Under the pieces are notes generated by a model. The model was given only the letters and a program-made list of their open reading frames with translations. It was not told where the DNA came from and ran no database searches. From an uncultured Myxococcales bacterium (GTDB taxonomy: Bacteria > Myxococcota_A > Polyangia > Fen-1088): DNA of 64,000 nt. This document shows, one piece after another, positions 4,667 to 21,212 of the stretch; within the stretch, counting starts at the first letter, position 1; each line of letters starts with the position of its first letter. The translations under genes and the position numbers were made by a program. Location: assembly GCA_964540815.1 (NCBI GenBank), contig CAZIOH010000031.1, positions 211-64,210 of the forward strand, written 5' to 3'.

Positions 4667-5010
4667 CAGCCCGAGTCGTCCCCACGAAGGGCCGGGAGAG
4701 GAAAGCTCCTGGCCCATCGGCCATGTGGCACCCGGCGCTTCGTCGGTGACTTCGCGCGGAGCGATCGCCTCTCCATGTATGCAACACCGGAGGCACCCGG
4801 CGGCCCCGGGGGGGCCAAGGAACCGACTGGCTCACCCCAACCACCACTCTTCGTAGTCGAGACTACGAACTCTCGTTGTTGAACCGCGCCCGCGCCCTTC
4901 ATCTCCAAAGATTCCGGCACTCTTGGGCTGGAAGGGCCGATGGCACGGCGCCTGCTGCAGCTGGGGATGTTCCCCGCTTCCGGTGGAGCAGAGACCACGA
5001 GGAAGGAACC

Positions 5011-5571
5011 ATGTGCAGGATCTCCCCGATCGATCCCGACGCTCTCACGGCCGCGCGCGACGAGGTCCTCGATGCCGTGAGGGCGAAGTTCGGCATGGTG
5101 CCAATGATGGTGCGAACGATGGCGCGGTCGCCCGCCGTCCTCTCCGGCTGGGCGGCGCTCGACGCCGCGCTGGCCAAAGGGGTGCTCGGGTCGCGGGTGA
5201 GCGAGCTCATCGCGCTCGCGGTGGCCCAGGTGAACCTGTCCCCATACTGCCTGGCGGCGCACAGCGCGCTCGGCCAGATGGTCGGGCTCTCGCCCGACGA
5301 CGCCGTCGAAGCCCGGCGGGGCCATGCGCCCCGGCGAGGCCAAGGGGAAGATCCGAAGGAGGCCGCTGCCATCCGTCTGGCGCTGGCGATCCTCGAGACC
5401 CGCGGAGGCGTGAGCGACGAGGTGCTCTGCCTCTGCCGCGAAGCGGGACTGTCGGACCAGGAGATGACCGAGGTGTCGGCACACGTGGCTCTGAACGTCC
5501 TCGCGAACTACTTCACCCGCCTGGCGGAGCCGCAGATCGACTTCCCGATGGTCGACGTCCGCCTGCCCTGA
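5011..5571 (+). CDS. carboxymuconolactone decarboxylase (AhpD-like/CMD) family protein
   Basis: The CMD-family motif NLSPYCLAAHS (CxxxH) is present. Start is ATG at 5011 (MCRISPID...), inside the longer track ORF 4876..5571. Confidence 0.75.
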   Translation: MCRISPIDPDALTAARDEVLDAVRAKFGMVPMMVRTMARSPAVLSGWAALDAALAKGVLGSRVSELIALAVAQVNLSPYCLAAHSALGQMVGLSPDDAVEARRGHAPRRGQGEDPKEAAAIRLALAILETRGGVSDEVLCLCREAGLSDQEMTEVSAHVALNVLANYFTRLAEPQIDFPMVDVRLP

Positions 5572-5624
5572 ACGCGAAACCAATCTGTCCCGTCACGTCA
5601 ACCACAAACGCCTGGAGAATTCAC

Positions 5625-6587
5625 ATGTCAATGTCCGCCATGACCGCATCCCCCATCGCGACGCCCACCCCGGCCGCTCCCGCCATGCCGACTCCGGTCA
5701 CCTTCGGGTCGACCATGGTCGATGGCCTGAACATCGCCTACCGTGAGGCCGGCAACCCGTCGAGCCCGAAGCTGGTCCTGCTGCACGGCTTCCCGGCCTC
5801 GTCGCACCAGTACCGCAATCTGGTGCGCGTCCTCGGCGATACCTTTCACGTCATCGCCCCCGACTACCCGGGATTCGGAAACAGCGATACCCCCGACCCC
5901 GGGAAGTTCGGCTACACCTTCGACAAGCTTGCCGAGGTGGTCGAGCGCTTCCTCGCCATCAAGGGGTTCGTTCACTACGGACTGTTCGTGCAGGACTACG
6001 GCGGACCGGTGGGCTTCAGGATCCTGGCGCGCCATCCCGAGGCGCTCGATTGGCTGGTCATCCAGAACACCAACGCCTACGAGATCGGCTTCACCGCGGC
6101 CTGGGACGGCTTCCGCGGCGCCTTGTGGAAGAATCCGTCGCCCGAGACCGAAGCGCCACTTGCCGGCTTTCTGACCCACGACGCGATCAAGGGCATCTAC
6201 CTCCACGGCGCCAAGCGCCCCGAGTTCGTGAGCCCGGACAACTGGGAGTCGGATTTCGGGTTCATGCAGCGCCCGCACGCCGTTCGCATGAACCTCGACC
6301 TCTTCTACGACTACCGGAAGAACGTGCCGCTCTACCCGGAATGGCAGGCATTCCTGCGCAACCGGCAGCCAAAGACCCTCATCTTCTGGGGTCAGGACGA
6401 TGTGTTCTTCACGAAGGAGGGCGGCGAGGCCTATCTGACCGACCTCCCCAACGCAGAGATGCACCGGCTCGCCGCCGGACACTTTGCGGTCGAGGACAAC
6501 CTCGAGTACATCTCAGAGCACATGCACCGCTTCTACGCGGAGAAGGTTGCCTCTGACGGCAGGAAGAAGGCGGTCGGCCACCGATAG
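5625..6587 (+). CDS. alpha/beta hydrolase fold protein (epoxide hydrolase/haloalkane dehalogenase-like)
   Basis: VLLHGFPASSHQYRNL and the GFG-containing nucleophile elbow region are present. Start is ATG at 5625 (MSMSAMTAS). Confidence 0.85.
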   Translation: MSMSAMTASPIATPTPAAPAMPTPVTFGSTMVDGLNIAYREAGNPSSPKLVLLHGFPASSHQYRNLVRVLGDTFHVIAPDYPGFGNSDTPDPGKFGYTFDKLAEVVERFLAIKGFVHYGLFVQDYGGPVGFRILARHPEALDWLVIQNTNAYEIGFTAAWDGFRGALWKNPSPETEAPLAGFLTHDAIKGIYLHGAKRPEFVSPDNWESDFGFMQRPHAVRMNLDLFYDYRKNVPLYPEWQAFLRNRQPKTLIFWGQDDVFFTKEGGEAYLTDLPNAEMHRLAAGHFAVEDNLEYISEHMHRFYAEKVASDGRKKAVGHR

Positions 6588-6633
6588 TGCTCGCGAATCC
6601 GGCCCCTGGAGCTCCGCCGCCGTCGATGGCGGC

Positions 6634-8673
6634 TCAGCCACCGCCTGCGGCAAGGCCCAGGGACTTGATGCGCGAAGCGAGCGTGGTCGGCTTCATGCCG
6701 AGCCTCTCGGCCGCGCCACCAGGGCCGAAGATCTTGCCGTCGGCCTCCCGGAGCGCTCGAGCGATGTTCTCGCGCTCCTGGTTCTTCAGCTCGTCTCGGG
6801 TGAGCAGGCCGGTCGCCACCGACGGCTGGCCGACCGGCCGAACCGGGGCGGCCGGCTTTGGCGCCGGCAGGTCGAACTCCAGCAGCCCATCTCGGGAAAG
6901 GATCACGGCCCGCTCGACGGCATTCTGGAGCTCGCGGATGTTGCCCGGCCAGTCGTGAGCCGTGAGCTGGGCCATCACGGCCTGCGCTATCCGGGGGGTG
7001 GGGCGGCCCATCTGGCGCGCGATCACCCTCGCGAAGTGGGAGACCAGCAGCGGGACGTCCTCGCGCCGCTCGCGCAGGGGCGGCAGGGCGATCGGAAAGA
7101 CGCTGAGGCGGTAGAAGAGATCTTCGCGGAAGCGGCCTTCTTGGGCCTCCCTCTTCAAGTCGCGGTTCGTCGCCGCGATGATCCGGACATTCACCTTGCG
7201 GGTCCTGGTGTCCCCGACGCGCTCGAGCTCCCGCTCTTGCAATACGCGCAACAGCTTGGCTTGCATCGCAAGCGGGATCTCCCCGACCTCGTCCAGGAAG
7301 AGCGTGCCACCGTCCGCCAGCTCGAAGCGCCCCGGCTTGTCCTTGACGGCGCCGGTGAAGGCGCCTCTGACGTGACCAAAGAACTCGCTCTCGAACAGGC
7401 TGTCGGGGATGGCGCTGCAGTTCACCTTGATGAGGACCTGGCCGTTTCGGTGACTCTGCTGGTGGATCGCCCGGGCGATCAACTCCTTTCCGGTTCCACT
7501 CTCGCCGTTGATGAGCACCGAAGCATCCGTGGGAGCGACGAGCTGGGTCTGCTGCAGCACCTTCTGCAAGCCGGGACTCTCTCCGATGACCGCGCCGAAG
7601 TTGAAGTCCGAGAGGATCTCTTCGTAGAGGTAGGCGTTCTCGGCCTGCAGGCGAACTTGCTGCCGCTCGAGGAGCACCCGATCCGTGATGTCGACCATGG
7701 CGGTGCGGGTGTACTCGCCGCCCCGCGCGGGCTTCGACCACCATTGGACCCAGATCGGGGCGCCGGTGTCCTTGCGGCGCAGCTCCAGCACGACTCCGTC
7801 CTTTCCCTTTCCCGCCTCGATCGCCTCGAACGCCTCCTGCAGGGCGCGCTGGTTCTCCGGTGTCTCGGCGACCAGTGACTTGCCGAAGGTCCTCGCGATC
7901 TCCGTCGGATCGATGCCGAGCATCTTGATCGCCGCCGCGTTGGCGCGGATGAAGCGGGAGTCCATTCCCTCGTGCACATAGGGGATGGGGGCCTCATCGA
8001 AGAGATCGCGGAAGCGCTCCTCGTTGTCGGCCAGGATCCGATTGGTGGCACGCAGCTGTTCGTTCAGCGACTGCTGCAAGCCCTCGAGGGCGGCGATCTT
8101 CCTCGCCGCCAACCGAAGCTCCATCTGGTCCATCACCAGCGACGCCAGCTTGTTCAGCATCTCGGCCTCGGGGGCCGTGAGCTCGCGCGGCTCTCGATCG
8201 ATGATACAGAGTGTGCCGAGATTGAAGCCTTCCCGGGTGCGCAGGGGCGCCGCCGCGTAGAAGCGCAGACCCAGGCTCCCGGTCACCAGGGGATTGGCGA
8301 GCGTCCTCGGATCGATCGCGGCATCGGACACTTGATAGAAGTCCGGGGAGAGGATCGCCGAGGAGCACAGGCCTGGAGCGCGATCGATCTCCGCTGCATC
8401 GAGGCCAGCGTGGGACTTGAACCAGATCCGATCGTGGTCCACGAGGCTGATGAGCGCGATGGGGACACGGAACAGGCCTGCCGCGACCGCCGTGATGCGA
8501 TCGAAGGCGCCATCCTGAGGGGTGTCGAGAATGTCGTACCGCCGGAGGACGTCGAGACGCTCCTCCTCATTGGCGGCCATGTTCTCGCTCGCACTGGGCA
8601 CGAGGACTTCTAGCACGGGGACCCGAGCGGGGGGCGTGGGTTCGCCCGCGCCCACGGCCGGGTCGAACGGCAC
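6634..8673 (-). CDS. sigma-54-dependent transcriptional activator with GAF and PAS sensor domains (bEBP, Fis-type HTH)
   Basis: The AAA+ sigma-54 interaction domain contains GESGTGKELIARAIH. A GAF-like N-terminus and a PAS region precede it, and a C-terminal HTH follows. The track start at 8673 is GTG. An ATG at 8580 (MAANEEERL, start of GAF) is an equally plausible start. Confidence 0.85.
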   Translation of the reverse strand: MPFDPAVGAGEPTPPARVPVLEVLVPSASENMAANEEERLDVLRRYDILDTPQDGAFDRITAVAAGLFRVPIALISLVDHDRIWFKSHAGLDAAEIDRAPGLCSSAILSPDFYQVSDAAIDPRTLANPLVTGSLGLRFYAAAPLRTREGFNLGTLCIIDREPRELTAPEAEMLNKLASLVMDQMELRLAARKIAALEGLQQSLNEQLRATNRILADNEERFRDLFDEAPIPYVHEGMDSRFIRANAAAIKMLGIDPTEIARTFGKSLVAETPENQRALQEAFEAIEAGKGKDGVVLELRRKDTGAPIWVQWWSKPARGGEYTRTAMVDITDRVLLERQQVRLQAENAYLYEEILSDFNFGAVIGESPGLQKVLQQTQLVAPTDASVLINGESGTGKELIARAIHQQSHRNGQVLIKVNCSAIPDSLFESEFFGHVRGAFTGAVKDKPGRFELADGGTLFLDEVGEIPLAMQAKLLRVLQERELERVGDTRTRKVNVRIIAATNRDLKREAQEGRFREDLFYRLSVFPIALPPLRERREDVPLLVSHFARVIARQMGRPTPRIAQAVMAQLTAHDWPGNIRELQNAVERAVILSRDGLLEFDLPAPKPAAPVRPVGQPSVATGLLTRDELKNQERENIARALREADGKIFGPGGAAERLGMKPTTLASRIKSLGLAAGGG

Positions 8674-8770
8674 TACGAAGTGTCGTCGATCGACGAGTTC
8701 TCGTCGGGCTCCAGGCCCGGTCTGGCTGCGATCGCTGCGCGATCCGGCCCCGAGCGCGCCGTCTCCGCGG

Positions 8771-8786
8771 TGGCACGGTCTTCGCT
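8771..8786 (+). promoter_or_regulatory. candidate sigma-54 (-24/-12) promoter TGGCACG-N4-TCGC upstream of the secreted-paralog/msrPQ operon
   Basis: The sequence gTGGCACGgtctTCGCt has the GG and GC dinucleotides at the canonical 11-nt spacing, with one mismatch to TTGC. It lies about 75 bp upstream of the start at 8860 and is divergent from the bEBP gene. Confidence 0.5.
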
Positions 8787-8859
8787 GAAGCCTCGCGGGA
8801 TGCCGTGGTCTTCACTCGGAGCCACCCACCGCGATTTTCCACTTGAAAGGACCAACACC

Positions 8860-10056
8860 ATGATTCGACGCCTCGACTTCCGTAACAGACCCTTGACATT
8901 CCTGAGCTCGGCCGTCGTCGCCGGGTTCGGACTCTCCACGAATCCGCTCTACGCGGACTCGGAGGTCACGCCGGCGCCGGCCTCGATCGGGGCCGATGTG
9001 CCGGTGACGTACTTCGGCCCGGCGCCGTCTTCCGTCGAGCCCGAGTTGATCGGGCCGCACCAGTTGATCACCGCCGGTCAAGTGGATCTGGCAGCCAGCA
9101 CGGTGAAGCTTCCGCTCTACAAGGGCCGGATGAAGAACACCGGCAAGGCCGTGTGGTTCATCCTCACGGATACCAGCGACGAGGGGCAGGCCCGAGCCCT
9201 TGGGATCAACTACTCCGCGAAGCTGCAATACGCGGCGACCTGCCGGGCCGCCCGAAACGGTGACTTCGCAAACGACGGCTCGGTGATCTTCGAGGAGGGG
9301 ACCGTCGACTTCGCGCCGGTCCATGCCGTCACACCGGGCGTCGCGCCGAAGGTCTTCCCGCCCGCCGCATTTCAGGCTGGCTCGGTCGGGGATGCCGACT
9401 ACAGCCCGCTGGTTCGCCTCGCCGGGGTCGTCTACAACGCCCCCATCGTGGCGTTCGGGGTCGAGGACGCAGATCTCGATTTCTGCCAGGCCACCCCTGA
9501 CCATTCCAAGGTCCACGACAAGGTCACCGCCATCTGTCCGAGGGACAACACCGTCACCCTGCGGCTGACCAACGGCTTCAGCTTCTCTCGACCCATCGTC
9601 TACATCAGCCTGGACGCAAACGATCCGCTCGCCGCCGCGCTCGAATCGGCGACCCTGGCCCCGGCCCTGAGCGACGTCACGGTGGGGCGAGACGACAGCT
9701 TCACCAGCGGCGTCGAGCGTCTCTTTGCGGTCATCAATGGTCCCACCAATGTGACCTCGGGCGAGGTGAACCCGCAGCGGCAAGGTTTCGAGAGCGTTCT
9801 CAAGGGAGACGGGTACGGGCCGCTCAACGTCTTCGGGGGAATCCCGACCTTGGCGACCGACTACAGCCCGCTGTGGGATGTGAACCTCGGCGAGTGGACC
9901 CAAGAGGCCATCGACAACGGCTATCGCTCACGCATCACCGACGAGTTCACCTGGCTCGGAATGGCGGTGCGCGGCTTCGTGACTGGGCCGGGGGGCACGC
10001 CCTACGGCTCGAGCGGAATCATCATCAACTGTCCTCCCGTCGCACGTCTCCTTTGA
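8860..10056 (+). CDS. secreted protein of unknown function, paralog A (about 398 aa), Sec signal peptide
   Basis: Inside track ORF 8680..10056; ATG start at the MIRRLDFRNRPLTFLSSAVVAGFGLS signal peptide. Roughly 45-50% identical to the next gene across its full length. The two share conserved Cys pairs (FCQATPDHSKVHDKVTAICP) and a DYSPLWD-NLG-WT motif. Confidence 0.7.
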   Translation: MIRRLDFRNRPLTFLSSAVVAGFGLSTNPLYADSEVTPAPASIGADVPVTYFGPAPSSVEPELIGPHQLITAGQVDLAASTVKLPLYKGRMKNTGKAVWFILTDTSDEGQARALGINYSAKLQYAATCRAARNGDFANDGSVIFEEGTVDFAPVHAVTPGVAPKVFPPAAFQAGSVGDADYSPLVRLAGVVYNAPIVAFGVEDADLDFCQATPDHSKVHDKVTAICPRDNTVTLRLTNGFSFSRPIVYISLDANDPLAAALESATLAPALSDVTVGRDDSFTSGVERLFAVINGPTNVTSGEVNPQRQGFESVLKGDGYGPLNVFGGIPTLATDYSPLWDVNLGEWTQEAIDNGYRSRITDEFTWLGMAVRGFVTGPGGTPYGSSGIIINCPPVARLL

Positions 10057-10093
10057 ACTCCCTCCTCTACCGACACCAACGGAGCCTACGATC

Positions 10094-11464
10094 ATGAAAA
10101 CCTCTGAATACGTCATTCTCGTCACTGTCCTCAACCTGATGGCGGGCGTGGGATGCAACAGCAGCAGCGGAACGGCGAGCGCTCTCAGCACCGGCGGAGG
10201 TGGCCTCGGCGGAAGCGGCGGCCAGCCGCCGGGAGCCGCGGACGCCAGCGACCTTCGAACGGGGCCGCAATGTCGCCAGGTCGGGGCCACCCGTTCTCCG
10301 CAGGTGACGACTGGCCTCGCCGACGAGATAGCTCCGGCGCCGCCTTCGATCGGCGCGGACGTCCCAGCGACCTACTTCGGGCCGAGCCCGTCCAGTGTGA
10401 ACCCCAACCTGGTGGGTCCGCTCACCTTGCTGAGGAGTGGCACGATCGATTTCGCCAAGGGCACCATCAAGCTGCCGCTCTACAAGGGCATGGTCAAATC
10501 GACGGGCCTCGCCGTTTACTACATCCTCACGGACACCAGCGACAAGGGGATTGCCGATGGGCTCGGGTTGAACTACTCGGCGAAGTTGAAGTTCGCGAAC
10601 GCCGCGGCGAGCGCGGGGGTCAACGGCTCGAATCCGGCGACCACCCTTCCCGCGCGGCAGGCGCACACGACCGCCGATCTCTCGCTGCAGTTCGACAACG
10701 GCACCGTCGACTTTGCCCCGCGGCTGGCGGTCACCCCCGGTGGGGCGCCGGACTTCTTTCCACCGTCCGCGGTGCAGCCCGGGTCGATCGGCGACAGCGA
10801 CTACACGCCGCTCGTCTACGTGCAGGATCAAGGGGTCGTGTACAACGCGCCCGTCGTCGCCTACGGTGTGACCGACGGCGATCTCAGCTTCTGTGACGGC
10901 GTCCCCGACTACGCCAAGGTGCATGACAAGGTCGCCGCCATCTGCCCGGACGACGGTACGGTGACCATTCGCCTGACGGCGGGCTTCAGCTTCGGCAAGC
11001 CCGTGTGGTATCTCAGCACGGACGCGAGCGATCCGCTCCTGGCTGCCCTCGAGCAAGCGACGTTTGCACCGGCCCTGCAGAACACCCGCGTCGGGGGCGA
11101 CGACGGCGCGTTCAGCGCGGTCGAGCGGATCTTCTCCTTCGCCAATGGTCCCACGAACGTCGGGACTGGCGACGTGGTCAACCCGCAACGACAAGGCCTG
11201 AACAGCGCGCTCAAGGGCGAAGGAGGTCCGCTCAACGTGCTCGGTGGAATTCCACACGTCGCCACCGATTACAGCCCCCTGTGGGACTTCAACCTGGGGG
11301 TCTGGACGGCCGACGCCATCGCCAAGGGCTATCGCTCTCGTGTGAACGAGGAGTTCCAGATCCTGGGGCTCGTCCAGCGCGGCTTCATCACCGGGCCAGG
11401 CGGCAAGCCGTGGGGTTCGACTGGCCTCATCGTGGACTGCCCCATCGTGCACCGCTTTCTCTAG
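10094..11464 (+). CDS. lipoprotein of unknown function, paralog B (456 aa), Gly/Ser-rich linker after the lipobox
   Basis: MKTSEYVILVTVLNLMAGVGC is a lipoprotein-type signal. Shared motifs with paralog A include LPLYKG, LTDTSD, NYSAKL, VYNAPVVA, KVHDKVAAICP and ATDYSPLWD. Confidence 0.7.
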   Translation: MKTSEYVILVTVLNLMAGVGCNSSSGTASALSTGGGGLGGSGGQPPGAADASDLRTGPQCRQVGATRSPQVTTGLADEIAPAPPSIGADVPATYFGPSPSSVNPNLVGPLTLLRSGTIDFAKGTIKLPLYKGMVKSTGLAVYYILTDTSDKGIADGLGLNYSAKLKFANAAASAGVNGSNPATTLPARQAHTTADLSLQFDNGTVDFAPRLAVTPGGAPDFFPPSAVQPGSIGDSDYTPLVYVQDQGVVYNAPVVAYGVTDGDLSFCDGVPDYAKVHDKVAAICPDDGTVTIRLTAGFSFGKPVWYLSTDASDPLLAALEQATFAPALQNTRVGGDDGAFSAVERIFSFANGPTNVGTGDVVNPQRQGLNSALKGEGGPLNVLGGIPHVATDYSPLWDFNLGVWTADAIAKGYRSRVNEEFQILGLVQRGFITGPGGKPWGSTGLIVDCPIVHRFL

Positions 11465-11475
11465 AGCACCCGTTC

Positions 11476-11517
11476 CCAACCAACCAGCCAACCGACCAAC
11501 CAACCAACCAACAACAG
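11476..11517 (+). repeat. imperfect (CCAA)n tetranucleotide tract (about 10 units) in the 5' leader of the Met-rich lipoprotein gene
   Basis: The tract ccaaccaaccagccaaccgaccaaccaaccaaccaacaacag sits directly upstream of an AAGGAG RBS and the ATG at 11542. It is an A/C-rich simple repeat in a roughly 70% GC genome. Confidence 0.6.
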
Positions 11518-11541
11518 ACCCACCCACCAAGGAGATCCCCC

Positions 11542-11928
11542 ATGAAACTCGCACTCGTCGTTCTCGCCACCATGCCGTTCAGCTTCTCCGCCTGCAAATC
11601 CTCCCCGCCCGGGGGCCCGGAGATGACACAACCGGCGATGCACGCCACCATGGCTGGCCAGGCACACGGCCCGGGCATGATGAGCGCGCCCGCCATGGCA
11701 GGGACGGGTAACACTGCGCCAGCGATGGCCGGTGGCGCCATGGCCGGTGGCTCGATCATGGCGGCACATGCCGTCGCCCCGGCGGCCGCCGTGATGGCAC
11801 ACGCGCCCGCCACGGCGCCCGCCATGGTGCCCGCCGCCATGGCACCGGCCACCACCATGGGGGCGACATCAAAGCCGACCATGAAGACGGCCGGTGGCAA
11901 GCGTCCGGTCGCCGGAACCCGACTCTAG
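11542..11928 (+). CDS. Met/Ala/His-rich small lipoprotein (MrpX-like methionine-rich peptide, or Cu-binding Met-rich protein), 128 aa
   Basis: ATG at 11542 with an AAGGAG RBS. The signal ATMPFSFSAC points to a lipoprotein. The mature part (AMHATMAGQAHGPGMMSAPAMAGTGNTAPAMAGGAMAGGSIMAAHAVAP...) has about 13% Met with MxxxM spacing and several His. It lies immediately upstream of msrP. Confidence 0.7.
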   Translation: MKLALVVLATMPFSFSACKSSPPGGPEMTQPAMHATMAGQAHGPGMMSAPAMAGTGNTAPAMAGGAMAGGSIMAAHAVAPAAAVMAHAPATAPAMVPAAMAPATTMGATSKPTMKTAGGKRPVAGTRL

Positions 11929-12191
11929 GGACCAGTCACTCGGATGCTCCACGGAATCAACATGGCCAGCGAGGTGGACGGCACGGGGATGATGACCGGC
12001 CGTTCCCTCGCGTGGGGGCGTGAGACTCCTGAGTCAGCAATGAATGCGATTCCGTCGCCGGAGACTCCGGCGGCGGAGGCCCGATCGCGCGCCGTCCAGG
12101 CCTGCGGTCGTGCTAGTGTTTCCTGCGTGGTCGACGTGACGGATCGGGAGCGGAGTCGTGGCGGCGAAGGCCGGCGACTCCGTCGAGGCTG

Positions 12192-13178
12192 ATGGCCAGT
12201 TCGGACGACATACCGCCGTCGGAGATCACACCGGCCTCGATGTACTTCAACCGGAAGACCTTCATGCGGGGGGTCGTGGCAGCTGCCAGCGTGGCCACGA
12301 CGGCGGCCGTCTACCGCCGTCTGAACGGCAAGTCCGAAGCGGCCGTCGAGGCGCCGAAGTTGGCCGGCCTGGAAGCGCCGGCCGTATCCGCCGAGGCGGC
12401 CGCGGCCGACGGCTACCGCATCGACGAAGCGATGACGCCGCTCGCTTCCGTCACGCACTACAACAACTTCTACGAGTTCACCACGGACAAGGACGGCGTG
12501 GCGGACCGGGCCAAGGACTTCTCGACCAAGGGCTGGCAGGTGACGGTCGATGGCCTGGTGGGCAAGCCCAGGGTGTTCGACCTCGCCGATCTCCTGAAGA
12601 TCAGTCCCCCCGAGGAGCGGATCTATCGAATGCGTTGCGTGGAGGCGTGGTCGATGGTGATTCCGTGGGCCGGCTTCTCGTTGTCGAAGCTCCTCGCGCG
12701 GGTGGAGCCGCTCAGCGCGGCGAAGTACGTCGCGTTCGAGACGCTGCTCGATCCAGCGCGCATGCCAGGTCAGAAGACCGGCGTGCTCGACTGGCCATAC
12801 ATCGAGGGACTTCGGATGGACGAGGCCATGCATCCCCTGACGATCCTGGCGTCGGGCTTGTACGGGCGCGAGCTGCCCGCGCAGGACGGGGCCCCGGTGC
12901 GGCTGGTGGTGCCCTGGAAGTACGGCTTCAAGGGGATCAAGTCGGTCGTGAAGATCTCCCTGGTCGCGGCGCAACCCAAGACCACCTGGAACCTCCAGGC
13001 GCCCGACGAATATGGGTTCTTCGCCAACGTCAACCCCAAGGTCGACCATCCGCGCTGGAGCCAGGCCACGGAACAGCGCATCGGTGAATCGGGCCGCCGC
13101 GCCACCCTGATGTTCAACGGCTACGGCAAGCAGGTGGCGAGCCTGTATTCGGGCATGGACCTGCGCGCGAACTTCTGA
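12192..13178 (+). CDS. msrP: protein-methionine-sulfoxide reductase catalytic subunit MsrP (YedY, molybdopterin-dependent)
   Basis: The YedY hallmark THYNNFYEF is present, with the Mo-cofactor region that follows it. A Tat-like N-terminus ([20 protein letters not shown]) is present. An alternative start is the ATG at 12240. Confidence 0.85.
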
Positions 13179-13200
13179 GCTGCGGACGCGGAGACCACAC

Positions 13201-15003
13201 ATGAAGCGCAAGCGCGACCTCCGGTTCACGAAGCTCCTGGTCGTGGTCAACGCGATCGTTCCGGGGGCGATCCTGGCCTGGGATGCAGCCCACGGACAGA
13301 TTGGTGTCAACGGCGTCAACTACGCCCTGCACACCACGGGATTGTTGGCCCTGATCTTCTTGCTGCTCACGCTCCTGGTGACGCCGCTGCGCAAGATCAC
13401 CGGGATCAACACCCTGATCTCGTACCGCCGCACGCTGGGGCTCATGGGGTTCGGCTACGCATGCGTGCATTTTCTGATCTTCTACGGGCTCGATCGCGCC
13501 GCGAGCGTCTCGAGCACGGTGCACGAGATCTTGACCAGGCGCTACCTGCTCATCGGGACCGCGGGGTTGTTGTTGATGGTGCCGCTGGCTGCCACCTCGA
13601 CGAACGCCATGCTGATGCGGCTGGGGGCAAAGCGCTGGAAGGCGCTGCACCGCCTGGTCTACCTGGTCGCGATCGCCGGCGCGCTGCACTACTACCTGCT
13701 GGTGAAGTCGGATGTTCGACAGCCGCTGGCGTTCGCCGGGGTGCTGGTGGCGCTCCTTGGCTTCCGGGTGGTGGGGTACCTCCTCGATCGGCGCAAGGCA
13801 CTCGACCCCGCGAAGCGCGCCCCCGCTTCGATGACGACGACGGCTTCGGCGACGTCGCCATCGCCGTCGCCGTCGCCGTCGGGCCCTGCCAGACCCCGCT
13901 CCTGGTCGGGGAGCCTTCGGGTGGCGAACGTGTTCGACGAGACACCCGACGTTCGCACGTTCCGTCTGATGCGCGAGGATGGGCAGCCGCTGCCGTTCGA
14001 GCACCAGCCAGGCCAGTACCTGAATCTGGCCCTCACCATAGACGGGAGGCGTGTCAATCGGTCGTACACCATCGCGTCGTCGCCCACGCGCGGGCACTCC
14101 TGCGAGGTCACGGTCAAGCGCAGCCCGAGCGGGCAGGGCTCTGTCCACCTGCACGATCAAATTCGCGTCGGTACCATGCTGAAGGTGTCGGCGCCCGCCG
14201 GCCGCTTCGTGTTCACGGGGGCAGGGTCGGATCGGGTCTTCCTCATCGCAGGCGGCGTGGGGATCACCCCCCTCATGTCCATCATTCGCTACCTGACGGA
14301 TCGCAGCTGGCCGGGCCAGATCCACCTGCTGTTCTCGTCGAAGAAGCGGGTCGATCTGATCTTCGCCGAAGAGCTCGCCTATCTGGAGCGGCGGTTCCCC
14401 AACCTCCACGTCTGTCACACGTTGTCGCGCGAGGATGGAAAAGGGGAGGTCAGCGATTGGAAGGGCGAGCGGGGCACCATCACCCGTGAACTCCTGGCGC
14501 GCGTGATGCCGGACGTGGCCCGTGGGCCGGTCTATCTGTGCGGGCCGGACGGCATGATGGCGGCGGTGCGGAAGGTGCTTCTCGAGATGGGTTTGCCCGA
14601 GGGGCTGCTGAAGACCGAGGCCTTCGTGTCTCCGCTGACCGCGGGGGCGCTGGCGCCTGCGGCCACCGGAGAGGACGCCGTCTCGGCGACCTTGGAGACT
14701 GCAGCGGCTGCCGACCCGCTGGCGACCACCCGGACGGAGGGGGCAGGGCATGTGCGCTTCCAGCGATCGGGCCAGCAGATCGAGGAGTCGCCGACCAAGA
14801 CGATCCTCGAGACCGCAGAGGACGCTGGCGTCAGCATTCCTTTTGAATGTCGTTCGGGCATCTGTGGACAGTGCAAGACCAAGTTGATCTCGGGGCGCGT
14901 GACCATGGAGACCGAGGACGCGCTCAGCGCGGCCGAGAAGGCCCGGGGATTCATCCTCGCCTGTCAGGCGCACGCCGTTGGTGACGTGACCGTCGATGCC
15001 TGA
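13201..15003 (+). CDS. msrQ: MsrQ (YedZ-like ferric-reductase transmembrane haem-b domain) fused to an FNR-type FAD/NAD(P)H oxidoreductase domain and a C-terminal 2Fe-2S ferredoxin domain
   Basis: The N-terminal 200 aa form a six-helix membrane domain with conserved His. RSYTIASSP is an RxYS FAD-binding motif and FLIAGGVGITPLMS is an NAD(P)-binding motif. The C-terminus CRSGICGQCKTK...ACQ is a plant-type 2Fe-2S ferredoxin motif. The reading frame runs 600 aa without interruption. Confidence 0.85.
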   Translation: MKRKRDLRFTKLLVVVNAIVPGAILAWDAAHGQIGVNGVNYALHTTGLLALIFLLLTLLVTPLRKITGINTLISYRRTLGLMGFGYACVHFLIFYGLDRAASVSSTVHEILTRRYLLIGTAGLLLMVPLAATSTNAMLMRLGAKRWKALHRLVYLVAIAGALHYYLLVKSDVRQPLAFAGVLVALLGFRVVGYLLDRRKALDPAKRAPASMTTTASATSPSPSPSPSGPARPRSWSGSLRVANVFDETPDVRTFRLMREDGQPLPFEHQPGQYLNLALTIDGRRVNRSYTIASSPTRGHSCEVTVKRSPSGQGSVHLHDQIRVGTMLKVSAPAGRFVFTGAGSDRVFLIAGGVGITPLMSIIRYLTDRSWPGQIHLLFSSKKRVDLIFAEELAYLERRFPNLHVCHTLSREDGKGEVSDWKGERGTITRELLARVMPDVARGPVYLCGPDGMMAAVRKVLLEMGLPEGLLKTEAFVSPLTAGALAPAATGEDAVSATLETAAAADPLATTRTEGAGHVRFQRSGQQIEESPTKTILETAEDAGVSIPFECRSGICGQCKTKLISGRVTMETEDALSAAEKARGFILACQAHAVGDVTVDA

Positions 15004-15074
15004 GCGTCTGGTGGACCCGTCGGAATGACAAAGCTCCTCGGGTGGAGAGAGTCACGTCGTCCGGCCCATTCTTG

Positions 15075-16322
15075 TCAGACAGGACACGAGCTGGCGGCTG
15101 GCTCGCCTCCGTGCGCTGCATGGGTGGAGTAGTCGGGCAGCTCGAGATCGTCGACGAGGCTGGACCCGACGGCCAATCTCGCGAGAAGCGGCGACCCCAG
15201 CACCCTCGTGGCCTGGTTCCGCATGAATATGCCGAGACCCGTTCGGGGTGCGATTGAACTGGCGAATCGGGCCGCTGCCGATTGCGTTTGAAGCATGAAC
15301 TTTCGCAGGAGCTGCTCGTATCGACTGAAGGCATCCTGCACGCTGCCGGAGCTCGAGGTAGCGCGGGCCATCTCGCCCGCCAGCACGTAAGCGCTCACGA
15401 GCGCCAGCGCGGCCCCCTGGCCGGCCATCAGGGACGGTGCAAACGCCGCGTCACCCACGAGCGCGACCCGGCCCTTCGACCACGCGTCCATGTGGATCTG
15501 GCTGACCCGATCGAAGGAGAGCGTATCCACGTCCCCGAGTGCGGCGAGAACGCGGTCACTCTCCCAGCCCGTGTTCGCAAAGCGACGGTGCAGATACGCC
15601 CGCTGCTGGTCGAGGTCCCGCGGCAGGGCCGCCACTCTGCGGCTTTCGGCCGCCAGGAGGAGGAAGCTGGTCCGATCATCGGGCATCGAATAGCGCATGA
15701 TCTGTTGCCCCGGCACTGCAAAGCCCACGCAGTCAGCCCCGTCGGCCGGGCGGTAGCCGGTACTTTCGAACGCCGCTGCCGTGTAGCCGAGGAATCGCTC
15801 GAAGCGAGACTGCGGCCCGAAGACCAGGGAACGCACCGTCGAGTGCAGCCCGTCGGCGGCGATCACGACGTCGAAGCGACGCGATGGGCTCAGGCGAAAA
15901 TGGACCAGGACGCCGTCCGCGTCCTCCTCGAGCGCGGAGATGGAGTCGCCGAAAATTGACTCCACCCGACCATCGATCGAGCTCTGGAGGATCTCGCTGA
16001 GCGCGCCTGGCGGCAAGCTGATGTAGCGTCCGTTGGTGAGGGCTTCGAATCGCTCCCCCTTGAAGCCGCCTGTGCGCCTTCCCTGGCGGTCCACCAGGCG
16101 AACCTCGCGCACGCGATACCCGGCAGCCAGGACCCTCGGCAAGAGTCCCATACGCTCGACGAGGTCGAAGCCAGGTCCCCAGAGATGGATGATGTGGCCG
16201 CTCCGGCGCGGCGCGGGCGCCTGTTCGACCATGGTCGGAACGCAACCATAGCGAAGCAACCAGTTGGCCACGGCAGGCCCCGCAATCCCGTTGCCGGAGA
16301 TGAGCACGGACTGTCCCCGCAT
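15075..16322 (-). CDS. FAD-dependent monooxygenase (salicylate/aromatic hydroxylase, UbiH-like family)
   Basis: MRGQSVLISGNGIAGPAVANWL is a GxGxxG FAD fingerprint. The C-terminal GDAAH-type motif VALVGDAAFAPSLMAGQGAALA is present. The likely start is the internal ATG at 16322; the track ORF extends to 16412. Confidence 0.8.
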   Translation of the reverse strand: MRGQSVLISGNGIAGPAVANWLLRYGCVPTMVEQAPAPRRSGHIIHLWGPGFDLVERMGLLPRVLAAGYRVREVRLVDRQGRRTGGFKGERFEALTNGRYISLPPGALSEILQSSIDGRVESIFGDSISALEEDADGVLVHFRLSPSRRFDVVIAADGLHSTVRSLVFGPQSRFERFLGYTAAAFESTGYRPADGADCVGFAVPGQQIMRYSMPDDRTSFLLLAAESRRVAALPRDLDQQRAYLHRRFANTGWESDRVLAALGDVDTLSFDRVSQIHMDAWSKGRVALVGDAAFAPSLMAGQGAALALVSAYVLAGEMARATSSSGSVQDAFSRYEQLLRKFMLQTQSAAARFASSIAPRTGLGIFMRNQATRVLGSPLLARLAVGSSLVDDLELPDYSTHAAHGGEPAASSCPV

Positions 16323-16655
16323 GGGCGTGGGGATGGGTCGAGGTCGGAGTCGCCTCGACCCCTCGACCTGCATGGAGGCGCTCACCGCGCCCCCCCCAGA
16401 CGTGACGCGCATCCCACGCTGTGTCGTGGCTGTCGACGCGCTCTCCAGAAGCCTTGGCCTTCCGAGTCCGAGCGCACGCCCGGGTGTCGCCGCGCCATCT
16501 CCCCTGGCGGCGCACGCCGCCGTGAAAGATCTGTCAACTCCGAAGTCCGAGCGCGCCGCCCCGCGGAGGCTCGAAAGTCCACGGCGGCGGCCGTCAGCTC
16601 GACCTGGAGACCCATCAGATGCAGCGGTTCGAACCTTCGAGACATGGGCCCCTCT

Positions 16656-18284
16656 TCACATCGCCGAGTGGGGAAGCAGGTCCAATCTGGAGACAGCCCC
16701 GTCGACCGGTGCCCCGCCCGAAAGCCCACCCGACCCACCTGGTAGGTCGACCACATCCGGCTTGATCGTGAGGTCCGCGAAGGCGGTGGTCTTGCTTCCC
16801 GCGGTGGCGACCAAGCGATCGGAGAGATCCCCGAGAAGCTGGTTGAGATCCGCGCGCCTGGCCGCCACCCGATTCAACCCTTTGGCCATTCGCGATATCT
16901 GCCGCGACGATTCAGGTGACGCGGATTCCTGGCGCGCGGCGACCCGGTACTCGGCGTGCGCGCAGGCGTCCGTCCTCAGTGCCTCGAGCAGGTCCGCAAT
17001 CTGGCCCTGGGTTTCGGCATCCAGCGCCGCCCGCTCGAAGGAGGCCACGCCCTCCGCCTTTCCGAACCAAACCCGCCCGGGCACCCCGAACGGGCCGGCC
17101 ATGCCCCCGTCGGGGGGAGAGTCCTCGATCACGAAGGTCGGCTCCGAAGTGAAGGGGAAAGTCTTGGGAAAGACCGCGAAGAGAACCGAACCGTCGGACA
17201 ATCCGCGCGCCAGCCCGACGAGCCCACCAAACGGGAAGAACATCTCTCGTCCGGCCCCGAGCTCGGCCCACAATCGCGCCCGATCCCTTGGGGTCAGCGC
17301 CAGAGGCTCGTCGGCATGGTCGTGAGGCGTTCGCTTGAAGGTGGACATCATGTCCCGCACCTGGTCTATCCCAACGACCACGTTCAGAGCGCTCCCCTCG
17401 GTATAGCCGGCATGATAGATGCCGACGAGCTCGTACTCGCCCGTCGTGGGAGAGACCGCGAGGACCGGAGATCCCGAGTTCCCCGAGGACAGCAGGGCAT
17501 CGACCACAAAGTCGTCGTGGTCCCAGTCGCCGAAGTCGTCGTGGTCGAGCGCGGAAATCACCTTGCCGACGTTGGTCGCACGGAAGGCCCCGAGGGGAAA
17601 TCCGCGCACCTCGACCACGTCGCGCTCTCGAAGCTCGGCGCTGTGCCCGATCCTCCAGGGCATCACGTGCAGCTCCACCTGGGTCTTCACGATGGCCACG
17701 TCGAGCTGAGGATCGGTCACGACCCTCGTGAGTGGCACGTCGTCGCGGTCGTAGGCGTCACGCTCATCGTCGACCAGGGACAGCGATTCCGACATACGCT
17801 TGCAACCCGAGGGGACCCCACTGACGACGTGCTGAGGATCCGTCACCGGGGGCCAGGAGGCCACGTGGTCATTGGTGAGGAGAAAGGTCTCCGCGCCCTG
17901 GCGCCGGTACGCGAAGGCGGTCCCGTGCAGCACGGCTTTCCGACGCTCCTTCCGTACGGCCCCTTCCGGGCCGTAGGATAGGCATTCGTAGACCGCCGTA
18001 TTGCGCGCGCAATACGAAAAGACACCCTCGGGACGATGATCGAACTCACGTGCCTCGGCCGACAGAGCCGAGAAGTCGTCGGCATATCCCAATGGGCCAC
18101 GAGGCGCGGACTCGGCGGGCGTGGCGAGGCGGTGGGCTGGCCCCAGAGATCCTCCATTGGAGTTCGACGATCCGGGAGCGCGTGAGGCTGCTCCCTGTCC
18201 GAGGATCTCCGCTGTGGCGCCGCTCTCGGCAACGTACGAGAGGAGGAGCGTGAGCCCGAGGGCGAGCAGCCAAGGGCGCTTCAT
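16656..18284 (-). CDS. secreted trypsin-like (S1/HtrA-like) serine peptidase domain protein
   Basis: The signal peptide is MKRPWLLALGLTLLL. The catalytic-serine motif GNSGSPV is present, with His/Asp contexts (DHV, DVAIVK) upstream. Confidence 0.7.
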   Translation of the reverse strand: MKRPWLLALGLTLLLSYVAESGATAEILGQGAASRAPGSSNSNGGSLGPAHRLATPAESAPRGPLGYADDFSALSAEAREFDHRPEGVFSYCARNTAVYECLSYGPEGAVRKERRKAVLHGTAFAYRRQGAETFLLTNDHVASWPPVTDPQHVVSGVPSGCKRMSESLSLVDDERDAYDRDDVPLTRVVTDPQLDVAIVKTQVELHVMPWRIGHSAELRERDVVEVRGFPLGAFRATNVGKVISALDHDDFGDWDHDDFVVDALLSSGNSGSPVLAVSPTTGEYELVGIYHAGYTEGSALNVVVGIDQVRDMMSTFKRTPHDHADEPLALTPRDRARLWAELGAGREMFFPFGGLVGLARGLSDGSVLFAVFPKTFPFTSEPTFVIEDSPPDGGMAGPFGVPGRVWFGKAEGVASFERAALDAETQGQIADLLEALRTDACAHAEYRVAARQESASPESSRQISRMAKGLNRVAARRADLNQLLGDLSDRLVATAGSKTTAFADLTIKPDVVDLPGGSGGLSGGAPVDGAVSRLDLLPHSAM

Positions 18285-18998
18285 GAGGTTGCATCTCGAC
18301 CAGGCGGCGAATCGAAATCCGGAGGAATGTCGCACGCCCCGGGGTCGTGCAACGGACGTACCAGTGGCAAATGCGCGTGCCCGGCTCCAAAGGCGTCAAC
18401 TTTCCTGACGCAGCCACGTCGAACCGTGGCCTTTCCTGCCGCCTGTTCACGACGAGGCCGACGATAGGTCTCAGGTGGGACTCGTTGGAGCACTTCCAAT
18501 CTCTCAGGGGTTCGCCGCCGGAGCGATCTCCCCGGATGTGTCGGCAGGCGGAAGGCTTCGATCAACCGACTCTGATCCGTCGCTGGAAGCCGGCCGCTCG
18601 TCCAGGGGTGGGTTCGACCCGAGCGGTGTGAGCTTCGAGCGATGCTCGGCGACGTTGTAGAGTCGATATCGGCTGTTCCTTGTGATCATGCTGGAGACTC
18701 CCAGTCGATGTGGCCAAGCTCCGGACTCCGCCGGGGCGTGTGAGGTTGACGTCGACCCGCAGGAAGCAACTCCTGGACCCAATCGGGAGGCCGGGCCTCG
18801 CCCCTCCAGAGTGGCGCAGGTCGAGAAGGTTCGCGACGCTGCGTCAGTGCCTCTCTCCGCGCGTCGTCATGTTTCTTGACGGCGTTCAGTCCGATCGTTT
18901 GCTTTTCACCCGGCGACTCGGGTGCGGGCTGTTGCCGGGGCACGCTTCCGCGACCGTTCGCATGGGAAGAGAGGCCTCCGAAATGCATGGTCGTCTCG

Positions 18999-20743: not shown

Positions 20744-21106
20744 ATGATGCATCTGAAAAGAGGAGTCTTTCTTGGTGCCGCGCTCACGGCCACCCTCGCC
20801 CTCGGAGCCTGCGATTCGTTCAAGGCCGATCTGGATCGGACTCGCGGCGAGCTTGCGGCCTCCAATACCGAACGGGATGGACTGAGGTCCGAGCTCGAAG
20901 CCGAAAAGACCAAGGTTACGAATCTCGACCGGCAAGTGACCGCGCTCAACGCCAAGCTGGCGGCCGCCCAGAGCGCCGGCGCGAACAAGCCAGCGACCGC
21001 CAGCCAGGGCTCCACTCCGGCGGCAACCAAGAAGGAAGAGAGGCCAGCAAAGCATGCCGCCAAGAGCGTCGGGAAGGGCGCGCACGCGCCTGCGCAAAAG
21101 GGGTGA
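20744..21106 (+). CDS. small coiled-coil lipoprotein (120 aa)
   Basis: The RBS AAAGGAATCC precedes the ATG at 20744. The lipobox is LALGAC. A coiled-coil stretch (LRSELEAEKTKVTNLDRQVTALNAKLAAAQ) and an Ala/Lys-rich tail follow. Confidence 0.6.
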   Translation: MMHLKRGVFLGAALTATLALGACDSFKADLDRTRGELAASNTERDGLRSELEAEKTKVTNLDRQVTALNAKLAAAQSAGANKPATASQGSTPAATKKEERPAKHAAKSVGKGAHAPAQKG

Positions 21107-21212
21107 GGCGCGGCGCGCCGGTGGGGGCCTCCACCGGCGCTGTCGACCCGATCGTTCCTTCGCCGGCACAACTTGCGCTCCGGCCCCCGACCACGCATCG
21201 TCTGCCATCTCG

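Follow-up and report, generated by a model that had tools for sequence, protein, structure and literature searches.

The locus analysed here encodes an MsrPQ system. In E. coli, a route from NADH to MsrQ via a separate reductase, Fre, was proposed (PMC12525009), and MsrPQ protects CusF under copper stress (PMC9302797). An MsrQ-FNR-ferredoxin architecture has already been catalogued (PMC3591440). The window, i.e. the whole 64-kb stretch of DNA that was analysed, is from a GC-rich, myxobacterium-like genome. Five same-strand genes at 8860-15003 were described there in an earlier note, and their ORFs are present at these positions (Table 1). The locus is probably a sigma-54 regulon that deals with oxidant damage outside the cytoplasm and is built from separable modules.

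Table 1. Features of the locus in window coordinates.
Feature	Position	Strand	Description
Di-haem CCP/MbnH-like lipoprotein	2402-4666	+	754 aa; Pfam CCP_MauG, weak MbnH-family match
Tandem upstream activator sites of P1, CCACCACTCTTCGTAG + CTACGAACTCTCGTTG	4841-4878		predicted; 78 nt before P1
Promoter P1, TGGCACGGCGCCTGCT	4941-4956	+	-24/-12, 1 mismatch; 54 nt before CMD/AhpD-like ATG
CMD/AhpD-like protein	5011-5571	+	186 aa; Pfam CMD E = 2.5e-11; RBS AGGAAGGA
Alpha/beta hydrolase	5625-6587	+	Pfam Abhydrolase_1; start uncertain, 5625-5715
bEBP, GAF-PAS-AAA+-HTH	6634-8580	-	648 aa from ATG 8580, most likely start
Tandem upstream activator sites of P2, CTACGAAGTGTCGTCG + CGACGAGTTCTCGTCG	8673-8706		predicted; site 98 nt before P2
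Promoter P2, TGGCACGGTCTTCGCT	8771-8786	+	-24/-12, 1 mismatch; 73 nt before ATG of A
Paralog A	8860-10056	+	secreted DUF7482-family protein, 398 aa
Paralog B	10094-11464	+	probable lipoprotein, DUF7482 family, Gly/Ser-rich linker, 456 aa
(CCAA)14 CA-rich spacer	11476-11530		Tandem Repeats Finder; unstructured, precedes Met-rich gene
Met-rich lipoprotein	11542-11928	+	Met/Ala/Pro-rich, small, 128 aa
GC-rich structured gap before msrP	11929-12191		263 nt; MFE -140 kcal/mol, z = -2.3
MsrP	12192-13178	+	periplasmic molybdenum methionine-sulfoxide reductase, 328 aa
MsrQ-FNR-Fer2	13201-15003	+	haem-b membrane domain + FNR-like FAD/NAD(P)H domain + plant-type 2Fe-2S ferredoxin domain, 600 aa

The cargo named in the earlier note was borne out by Pfam and NCBIfam models, lipobox and Met count for A and B, the Met-rich lipoprotein, MsrP and the MsrQ fusion. 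With NF003767 (cut-off 207), MsrP scored 463 bits; it shares 62% of its residues with the E. coli protein, a conserved 10-residue motif among them. The N-terminus of MsrQ scored 147 bits with NF003831 (cut-off 130), and the fusion matched Pfam Ferric_reduct, FAD_binding_6, NAD_binding_1 and Fer2; it retains the haem and flavin-pocket residues R77, R78, H91, H151 and H164 (E. coli numbering). This fusion is not unusual; it is widespread, with more than 120 protein clusters at 53% identity or above, besides being catalogued already. In the proposed mechanism, MsrP would reduce methionine sulfoxide in periplasmic proteins, with electrons passing from cytoplasmic NAD(P)H through the fused FAD and 2Fe-2S domains and the MsrQ haem across the membrane to MsrP, so that a separate Fre-type reductase would not be needed.

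The divergent regulator matched the domains of a GAF-PAS sigma-54 activator, as had been claimed, with Sigma54_activat at 245 bits, GAF, PAS, AAA_lid_14 and a weak HTH_8; its translation contains GAFTGA and Walker A motifs and a Fis-type C-terminus. Its longest ORF begins at GTG 8673, a start that was disfavoured relative to the ATG, which agrees with a 648-aa call on a near-identical contig. For A, the start of the longest ORF, GTG 8680, was likewise rejected in favour of the ATG. Scanning for the sigma-54 consensus TGGCAC-N5-TTGCW with one mismatch allowed gave four matches in the 64-kb window versus 1.04 expected. The -24/-12 element expected ahead of A is among these features as P2, from which transcription is predicted to start near 8797, and a second promoter, P1, shares with it the form TGGCACG-N4-YYGCT. 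Since P1 lies ahead of the AhpD-like and hydrolase genes, the activator gene is flanked by two presumed targets. The sites upstream of both promoters have in common the palindrome CTACGA-N4-TCGTNG; relative to CTACGA-N4-TCGTAG, those of P1 carry two mismatches (CCACCACTCTTCGTAG) and one (CTACGAACTCTCGTTG). With at most one mismatch, this operator is present in two copies in the window, each ahead of a -24/-12 motif.

The operator is also found outside the window. Among 80 metagenome loci with a gene for an activator homologue, ten copies were counted, versus 0-4 in shuffles, and nine of the ten are followed 78-124 nt downstream by a -24/-12 motif, the background of which is about 0.01 per 90 nt. 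In these cases the operator-plus-promoter pair stands beside homologous activators on unrelated metagenome contigs. Upstream of A, an 18-mer of the P2 activator sites, ACTACGAAGTGTCGTCGA, is identical in a second lineage (L090 and L175-L178), where it precedes the A orthologue; the P2 counterpart there is TGGCACGCCTCTCGCT, 72 nt before that gene, and the intergenic DNA is otherwise diverged save for the ribosome-binding site. The conservation of P2 and of the 18-nt element, an operator of the type that accompanies homologous activators, supports the proposed sigma-54/bEBP control of the promoter before A. The activator would bind the tandem sites upstream of P1 and P2 on either side of its gene, P1 would drive the AhpD-like peroxidase-type gene and the hydrolase, and P2 would drive A and B. 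Two observations count against parts of this reading. Activator homologues sharing the operator control unrelated cargo, NMT1_2-type ABC transporters among it, so the operator is uninformative on the inducing signal; in the second lineage a divergent ECF sigma gene takes the place of the adjacent activator, so regulation there may be dual.

Read-through from P2 would most likely also drive the Met-rich lipoprotein gene, msrP and msrQ. The junctions, claimed to be short or overlapping, are 37, 77, 263 and 22 nt in gene order; none of the four overlaps, and the one before msrP is long. Judged from its sequence, this structured gap could hold a promoter, processing or termination site, which weighs against read-through and would agree with an arrangement of adjacent independent units. 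On that view, sigma-54 and its activator would control A-B alone at P2 and the AhpD-like/hydrolase pair separately, one or more further promoters would serve the Met-rich gene and msrPQ, and adjacency would reflect recent rearrangement. We regard this arrangement as possible but doubtful. The gap showed no Rfam family match and no sigma-54-like site, and it shares no conserved element with the DNA ahead of other msrP genes; the absence of detected sigma-70-like or sigma-54-like sites in the gaps argues against separate promoters, as does the lack of a cross-lineage conserved element upstream of msrP. A scan of 8400-15400 found no sigma-70-like sites, and terminator-like sites were not in excess across the five-gene unit.

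Comparison of relatives bears on the same question from both sides. Of the more than 80 loci examined, nearly all have A-B but no msrPQ, relatives at 73-79% identity included, while the closest msrPQ relatives carry msrP-msrQ(FNR-Fer2) without A-B; both facts speak against a regulon spanning all five genes. MsrP and MsrQ of the window are closer to a pair encoded without A-B (84% and 76% identity) than to the pair encoded with A-B (70% and 56%). This separation of modules in most relatives and the Met-rich gene as a lineage-specific insertion favour independent units. Against them, A-B-msrP-msrQ(FNR-Fer2) recurs collinearly in the second lineage; in L177 its junctions measure 33, 101 and -14 nt, the last an overlap of msrP and msrQ. 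Furthermore, the operator and sigma-54 promoter are present in two of six close A-B lineages, exactly the two with msrPQ downstream. The five genes are not an evolutionarily coherent unit: the Met-rich gene is confined to its lineage, and the unit is a mosaic of separable modules.

A and B are 60% identical to each other and scored 32.8 bits (cut-off 27.5) and 41.2 bits (above cut-off) with Pfam DUF7482. Homologues of A number 3103 at ~55-87% identity, and family members from different bacterial phyla, as well as from some archaea, still share ~55-60% identity. Two or more copies were found in 35 of 85 loci, and in Granulosicoccus and Paraglaciecola A is followed by copies of the B type, which have a long linker as well as a lipobox Cys. 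A would be soluble and B lipid-anchored, both being extracytoplasmic. The AlphaFold model of A (pTM 0.75) has no fold match in the PDB, and no fold relative of DUF7482 was detected there. Neither protein has a recognisable catalytic fold or motif or is Met-rich (3 Met each), which tells against an oxidant role. A different role, for example structural or hydrolytic at the cell surface, with general envelope-gene co-regulation accounting for the linkage, would agree with the missing chemistry, the varied neighbourhoods (peptidases, LysR, ECF sigma, glycosyl transferases) and regulators that differ from locus to locus. Such a role is considered unlikely, since in 16 of 59 loci, from five groups (Acidobacteriota, Binatia, Deinococcota, Chloroflexota and Myxococcota), DUF7482 is directly followed by a same-strand vanadium-haloperoxidase-like/PAP2 gene, homologues of the CCP, CMD and hydrolase recur across phyla, and A-B and msrPQ cluster in two lineages.

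One downstream haloperoxidase-like protein matches the 4CIT haloperoxidase (E = 4e-43); bEBP, hydrolase, CMD and CCP genes are repeated DUF7482 neighbours. The upstream genes previously named as a CCP, an AhpD-like protein and a hydrolase all matched. The first, with two CxxCH motifs and an LWAGC lipobox, has homologues (51-55% identity) adjoining DUF7482 genes in a Burkholderiales and a Trueperaceae locus. Homologues of the CMD/AhpD-like protein are encoded close to DUF7482 genes at 6-7 other loci. For the hydrolase, 12 loci have a homologue close to DUF7482 and seven have one close to a bEBP homologue; its best partial matches are NCBIfam haloalkane dehalogenase models, below cut-off. The suggested oxidative-stress island gains from these recurrent associations in other phyla and from the second sigma-54 promoter with its like operator. 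The partners elsewhere (vanadium-haloperoxidase-like proteins, di-haem peroxidase, AhpD-like proteins, hydrolases) point to peroxide or hypohalous-acid chemistry outside the cytoplasm, which A and B would most likely either act on or help the cell to withstand. A point against this is that no haloperoxidase gene was found in the window. DUF7482, a large, highly conserved and uncharacterised family, is a real lead.

The Met-rich protein has an FSAC lipobox, and of its 111 mature residues 14 are Met and 4 are His; its gene has a strong RBS, AAGGAGA, and a GC3 of 0.81, and the spacer before it folds no better than shuffled sequence. Homologues form only two other protein clusters, both keeping the motif EPAMHATMxGxAHGPGMM. 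The protein may serve as a disordered methionine sink tethered to the membrane, or may bind Cu(I), and MsrP could recycle it. Copper or soft-metal stress instead of hypochlorite would have the lipoprotein bind Cu(I), MsrPQ repair copper-driven Met oxidation and the activator sense a metal or metal-dependent redox signal. This is quite unlikely, even though the conserved motif has HxxM and MxxH spacings beyond composition alone and the protein, unlike MrpX, is poor in charged residues. In L096, an activator homologue neighbours a DUF2282/DUF692/DUF2063/DoxX operon with msrPQ after it, an arrangement that presumably resembles copper-related bufferin loci. The CusF protection by E. coli MsrPQ (PMC9302797) points the same way. 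Against copper, 1-24 kb showed no genes for copper efflux, a multicopper oxidase or CopC/CusF, the enzymes encoded nearby are of peroxide type (CCP, AhpD-like), and DUF7482 partners elsewhere are haloperoxidase-like.

Oxidant damage remains the preferred reading. The Met-rich protein is unlike MrpX in its composition, its anchoring and the place of its gene. The locus is an MsrPQ system new in regulation and composition.

The activator gene is divergent from A, the first of two DUF7482 paralogs, and encodes GAF, PAS, AAA+ and HTH domains, with GESGTGKE (Walker A) and GAFTGA present in the translation. Its Sigma54_activat domain scored 245 bits (Pfam) and HTH_8 was found at 16.9 bits, below its cut-off; a conserved palindromic operator near homologues of the activator is consistent with a functional DNA-binding domain. 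On a near-identical contig the activator gene is called from an ATG equivalent to 8580, so that the intergenic region to A measures 279 nt. Sigma-54 promoters were defined as matches to TGGCAC-N5-TTGCW with the GG and GC elements 10 nt apart, located 5' of a gene in the right orientation. P2, TGGCACGGTCTTCGCT, lies 73 nt before the ATG of A, and P1, TGGCACGGCGCCTGCT, 54 nt before the ATG of the CMD/AhpD-like gene, each with one mismatch; four matches with one mismatch occur in the window against 1.04 expected. A palindromic operator stands ahead of each promoter, CTACGAACTCTCGTTG at P1 and CTACGAAGTGTCGTCG at P2, and nowhere else in the 64 kb does a site come within one mismatch of CTACGA-N4-TCGTAG. 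A weaker second copy adjoins each of them, the pair ahead of P1 spanning 4841-4878. With P1 and the same operator in front of the AhpD-like/hydrolase pair, the activator gene has a predicted target on either side. The earlier note had proposed a -24/-12 element 5' of A facing a divergent GAF-PAS activator, and both the motif and the activator domains bear this out. Predicted sigma-54 control of A from P2 and of the AhpD-like/hydrolase pair from P1, by the activator encoded between them, is well supported computationally, and we infer that the activator binds the operators and that transcription starts at P1 and P2. A further -24/-12-like motif with one mismatch, TGGTACGTCCGTTGCA, has no CTACGA-type operator near it; the gene behind it, for a trypsin-like peptidase, begins 13 nt further on if the longest ORF is taken.

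Features of the window and of the comparison loci (L-numbers)
Sequence	Feature	Position	Strand	Remarks
window	NrsF-like ORF	105-512	+	short
window	CCP	2402-4666	+	di-haem CCP/MbnH-like lipoprotein, 754 aa
window	Operator ahead of P1	4863
window	P1	4941-4956	+
window	CMD/AhpD-like gene	5011-5571		alpha/beta hydrolase gene next, 3' of it
window	Activator	6634-8580	-	GAF-PAS-AAA+-HTH
window	Operator ahead of P2	8673
window	P2	8771-8786
window	A	8860-10056	+	DUF7482
window	B	10094-11464	+	DUF7482
window	(CCAA)14 tandem run	11476-11530
window	Met-rich small lipoprotein gene	11542-11928	+
window	msrP	12192-13178	+	NF003767
window	msrQ fusion gene	13201-15003	+	600 codons; MsrQ-type haem domain, FAD_binding_6, NAD_binding_1, Fer2
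window	FAD-dependent monooxygenase gene	15075-16412	-
window	Trypsin-like peptidase gene	16656-18335	-	longest ORF
window	-24/-12-like motif	18348-18363	-
window	CLC-type chloride channel gene	21054-23147	+	CBS domain
L017	VHPO-like gene after DUF7482	11212-12609		Trueperaceae
L006, L019, L043, L047, L048, L053, L064, L067, L069, L072, L074, L077, L078, L080, L082	VHPO-like gene after DUF7482
L053	Three tandem operator-type sites	6818-6872
L053	TGGCCA-N5-TTGCA motif	9544-9559
L090	Divergent neighbours of A	7360-8258	-
L096	Activator homologue to msrP-msrQ	2733-10788		metagenome contig, 51% G+C

The regulatory assignment gains weight from comparison. A second lineage (L090 and L175-L178) encodes an A protein 82% identical to that of the window and an MsrQ only 56% identical, and upstream of A it keeps an identical 18-mer, ACTACGAAGTGTCGTCGA, a -24/-12 motif, TGGCACGCCTCTCGCT, and the ribosome-binding site, the remaining upstream DNA having diverged. 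The divergent neighbours in L090 encode an ECF sigma factor, an ABC-2 transporter and a 109-aa protein for which no family match was found; since promoter and operator are kept despite them, the gene for the cognate activator must lie elsewhere. In 80 metagenome loci gathered with the activator protein as query, the operator occurred 10 times against 0-4 in shuffles, and at 9 of the 10 occurrences a -24/-12 motif follows at a distance of 78-124 nt, directed away from the activator gene; the background density of the motif is about 0.01 per 90 nt. These operator-bearing loci carry unrelated cargo, NMT1_2-type ABC transporters among others, which argues that the operator marks the activator clade and not the signal. 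In L053 (Binatia), the activator homologue is 67% identical and three tandem CTACGA-N4-TCGTAG-type sites lie between its gene and an AhpD-like gene, with a DUF7482 gene 3 kb beyond; that gene follows a small ORF, STAS-like by eye from the DNA, which has a TGGCCA-N5-TTGCA motif ahead of it. L096 likewise has a related bEBP in the vicinity of msrPQ: there the activator homologue is divergent from a gene for a DUF2282-like small Cys-rich precursor, followed by DUF692-like, DUF2063-like and DoxX-like ORFs and then msrP-msrQ, the ORFs being assigned from N-terminal sequences. A general sigma-54 promoter directly 5' of DUF7482 genes was rejected, for it was seen at 3 of 65 loci only, the background rate, and sigma-54 control is thus lineage-specific.

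Gram-negative bacteria repair periplasmic methionine chiefly through MsrPQ, whose physiological electron donor is disputed, with quinols and the flavin reductase Fre as the candidates. MsrP of the window scored 463 bits with NF003767, against a cut-off of 207, and shares 62% identity over 257 aa with its E. coli counterpart, including a conserved 10-residue motif. Examined for a twin-arginine signal, its N-terminus reads FNRKTFMRG (R-K, not R-R) and that of the L090 orthologue FNRRTLMRG. The MsrQ domain scored 147 bits with NF003831 (cut-off 130), and alignment with E. coli MsrQ left R77, R78, H91, H151 and H164 (E. coli numbering) invariant, which assigns it to the YedZ/MsrQ single-haem type rather than the four-histidine NOX type (PMC3591440). 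The C-terminal part of the fusion holds the Pfam domains FAD_binding_6, NAD_binding_1 and Fer2 with a four-Cys 2Fe-2S motif, CRSGICGQC...C; specific NCBIfam equivalogs (PaaE/GbcB-like module) fell below cut-off, so no named function was assigned. With curated models passed and all three domains present, the proposal of an MsrP and an MsrQ carrying its own NAD(P)H/FAD/2Fe-2S input stands. The architecture is not novel but widespread: the MsrQ-FNR-Fer2 fusion was found in more than 120 protein clusters at 53% identity or above, many from Myxococcota, which JGI annotates as 'ferredoxin-NADP reductase/YedZ'. Being directly after msrP, such a natural fusion forms a self-contained system for testing the donor question, and we know of no MsrQ-type fusion of this kind that has been characterised biochemically. 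It bears on the question of the MsrQ electron donor, in E. coli a separate reductase or still debated (PMC12525009), and the architecture itself is among the extensions recorded for bacterial FRD proteins (PMC3591440).

The five plus-strand genes fill 8.8-15.0 kb of the window, whose G+C content is about 66%. They had been described as having short or overlapping junctions. Those of A/B, B/Met-rich and msrP/msrQ measure 37, 77 and 22 nt, but the description fails between the Met-rich gene and msrP, where the gap is 263 nt long and folds more stably than shuffled sequence (z = -2.3). The (CCAA)14 run forms an unstructured spacer between B and the Met-rich gene, with a strong AAGGAGA ribosome-binding site after it. 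On its 3' side the cluster is bounded by a gene, convergent with msrQ, for a FAD-dependent monooxygenase that partly matches PRK07588 and the tetracycline-destructase subfamily. The CLC-type channel gene lies about 6 kb 3' of msrQ, and any link with halide or hypohalite chemistry would be pure speculation. The sole NrsF-like fragment in the window aligns with no more than the C-terminal two-thirds of the profile for NrsF (anti-sigma-F); the DNA next to it showed no ECF sigma gene, and an MFS/acetyltransferase gene stands 5' of it on the near-identical contig.

The modules A-B, msrPQ and the Met-rich gene are separable across relatives. A-B pairs occur at 35 of 85 loci across phyla, and relatives of A at 73-79% identity (L005 among these) hold A-B in other contexts; a true MsrP was found beside DUF7482 at 0 of 80 genome loci. 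The closest msrPQ relatives (MsrP 84% and 78%, MsrQ fusion 76% and 69% identical) are without A-B and without any Met-rich gene, and the proteins encoded 5' of msrP there, considered as possible counterparts of the Met-rich one, are not Met-rich. In the second lineage, L177 runs A-B-msrP-msrQ(FNR-Fer2), lacks the Met-rich gene and has junctions of 33, 101 and -14 nt. Six close A-B lineages were compared, and operator and sigma-54 promoter were present in exactly two, the same two that have msrPQ downstream; this co-occurrence is suggestive only. A rival reading of the structured 263-nt gap is that transcription of msrP starts anew within it. A sigma-70-like promoter scan of the cluster gave no sites, neither a sigma-54-like site nor a conserved element was found 5' of msrP, and terminator-like sites were at chance level; an Rfam scan of 8000-16000, including this gap (e.g. 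for a Moco riboswitch), returned sub-threshold chance matches only. Read-through from P2 to msrQ is the likelier reading, held with modest confidence, and an internal start the less likely one.

The Met-rich lipoprotein has a lipobox Cys, 12.6% Met in its mature form, 28% Ala and about 7% charged residues, and is rich in Ala, Pro and Gly. Only two homologous clusters, in which the motif EPAMHATMxGxAHGPGMM is kept, were found among 5.8 billion proteins, so the gene is a recent addition. Membership in the MrpX-type scavengers was rejected, as composition and lipobox Cys differ from the soluble, unfolded MrpX with its ~20% Met and ~44% charged residues. Binding of Cu(I) is a plausible alternative role.

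A and B scored 32.8 and 41.2 bits against the Pfam gathering threshold of 27.5 for DUF7482 and are 60% identical to each other; only part of the 257-position profile was matched, so they represent a distinct, longer subfamily. The family yielded 3103 matches, about 55-60% identical across phyla, in Myxococcota, Acidobacteriota, Chloroflexota, Deinococcota, Cyanobacteria and Proteobacteria, as well as the archaeal Nitrososphaerales and Methanotrichaceae. The closest named relatives are Polyangiales and Labilithrix MAGs. Clustered at 50%, the matches to the DUF7482 profile came to 1629 representatives. Among them are multi-repeat giants such as P0261 (2294 aa), P0269 (1252 aa) and P0317 (962 aa), whose 2-6 tandem DUF7482-like stretches show that DUF7482 can serve as a repeat unit in extracellular proteins. 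No fold match for DUF7482 was found in the PDB, and no mention of it in the literature, of which coverage was incomplete. Homology of the 754-aa CCP-like protein to DUF7482, suggested by a clustering artefact, was ruled out by profile comparison.

Gene neighbourhood provides the only functional lead on A and B, namely peroxide or hypohalite chemistry. At 16 of 59 loci, distributed over five phyla, DUF7482 is directly followed on the same strand by a PAP2/vanadium-haloperoxidase-like (VHPO-like) gene; one of the encoded proteins is a full-length homologue of 4CIT (E = 4e-43), the acidobacterial form being a more distant member of the PAP2/VHPO superfamily. An HMM built from these proteins detected no VHPO/PAP2 gene in the 64 kb window. 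Other neighbours are alpha/beta hydrolases (12 loci), sigma-54 activators (10), CMD/AhpD-like proteins (6-7), homologues of the 754-aa CCP (2-3), and SDR, DM13 and FNR-type redox proteins. With such recurrent neighbours as haloperoxidase-like proteins, peroxidases and MsrPQ, the locus offers a first functional handle on DUF7482. A tentative proposal, which we consider rather doubtful, is that DUF7482 represents a previously unrecognised extracytoplasmic enzyme or binding class for peroxide or hypohalous-acid chemistry, and it might make, channel or quench the oxidant used or produced by vanadium haloperoxidases. If true, this would explain the haloperoxidase-like partners in some phyla and the NAD(P)H-autonomous MsrPQ with a dedicated sigma-54 activator here, and the MsrQ-FNR-Fer2 fusion would also be natural evidence for cytoplasmic NAD(P)H, not quinols, feeding MsrQ.

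Compared with MsrPQ (YedYZ) and HprSR (YedVW) of E. coli, the locus shares an orthologous MsrP, the haem histidines and flavin-pocket arginines of MsrQ, and the tight order msrP then msrQ. It differs in the FNR-like and 2Fe-2S domains fused to MsrQ, in the two DUF7482 genes and the Met-rich gene ahead of msrP, and in its predicted sigma-54 activator, where E. coli has a two-component system, hprRS adjoining msrPQ in K-12. With the Azospira suillum locus SigF/NrsF-yedY1Z1-mrpX it shares a Mo Met-sulfoxide reductase beside a small exported Met-rich protein and a divergent regulator (PMC4436054). There, however, an ECF sigma/anti-sigma pair, SigF/NrsF, controls yedYZ-mrpX, in place of a bEBP and sigma-54, and MrpX is soluble, with 20% Met and 44% charged residues, its gene lying 3' of yedYZ (PMC4436054), whereas the protein of the window is lipid-anchored and poorly charged and its gene lies 263 nt ahead of msrP. 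Long-form bacterial FRD proteins likewise join a membrane haem domain to a FAD/NAD(P)H dehydrogenase and Fer2 (PMC3591440), and the pair of Fre and MsrQ has been described as mimicking the NOX organisation (PMC5676040, PMC12525009); the FRD of the window differs in being of the YedZ/MsrQ type, with Arg replacing the first haem histidine, and in directly following msrP. The 4CIT-type vanadium haloperoxidases are linked to DUF7482 elsewhere, by gene neighbourhood only, and have no gene in the window.

The activator resembles the NorR, FhlA and NifA class in its N-terminal GAF, central AAA+ with GAFTGA and C-terminal Fis-type HTH, and its partial NCBIfam matches to these three cover the AAA+/HTH region, all below equivalog cut-offs; it differs in an extra PAS, and its operator, CTACGA-N4-TCGTNG, is defined by comparison alone. 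The combination of msrP or msrPQ with sigma-54 was not found among the 15 top-ranked of 557 literature matches, weak evidence given the incomplete coverage. The effector pair belongs to the MsrPQ family, and the locus varies the HprSR-msrPQ and SigF/NrsF-yedYZ-mrpX systems in its bEBP/sigma-54 control, in the electron input fused to MsrQ in this genomic context and in its DUF7482 and Met-rich companions. The known msrPQ controls, HprSR, SigF/NrsF and Cpx, are joined here by a predicted sigma-54/bEBP circuit for which a candidate operator is defined. The main value of the locus lies in a defined, testable sigma-54 regulon and in the DUF7482 lead.
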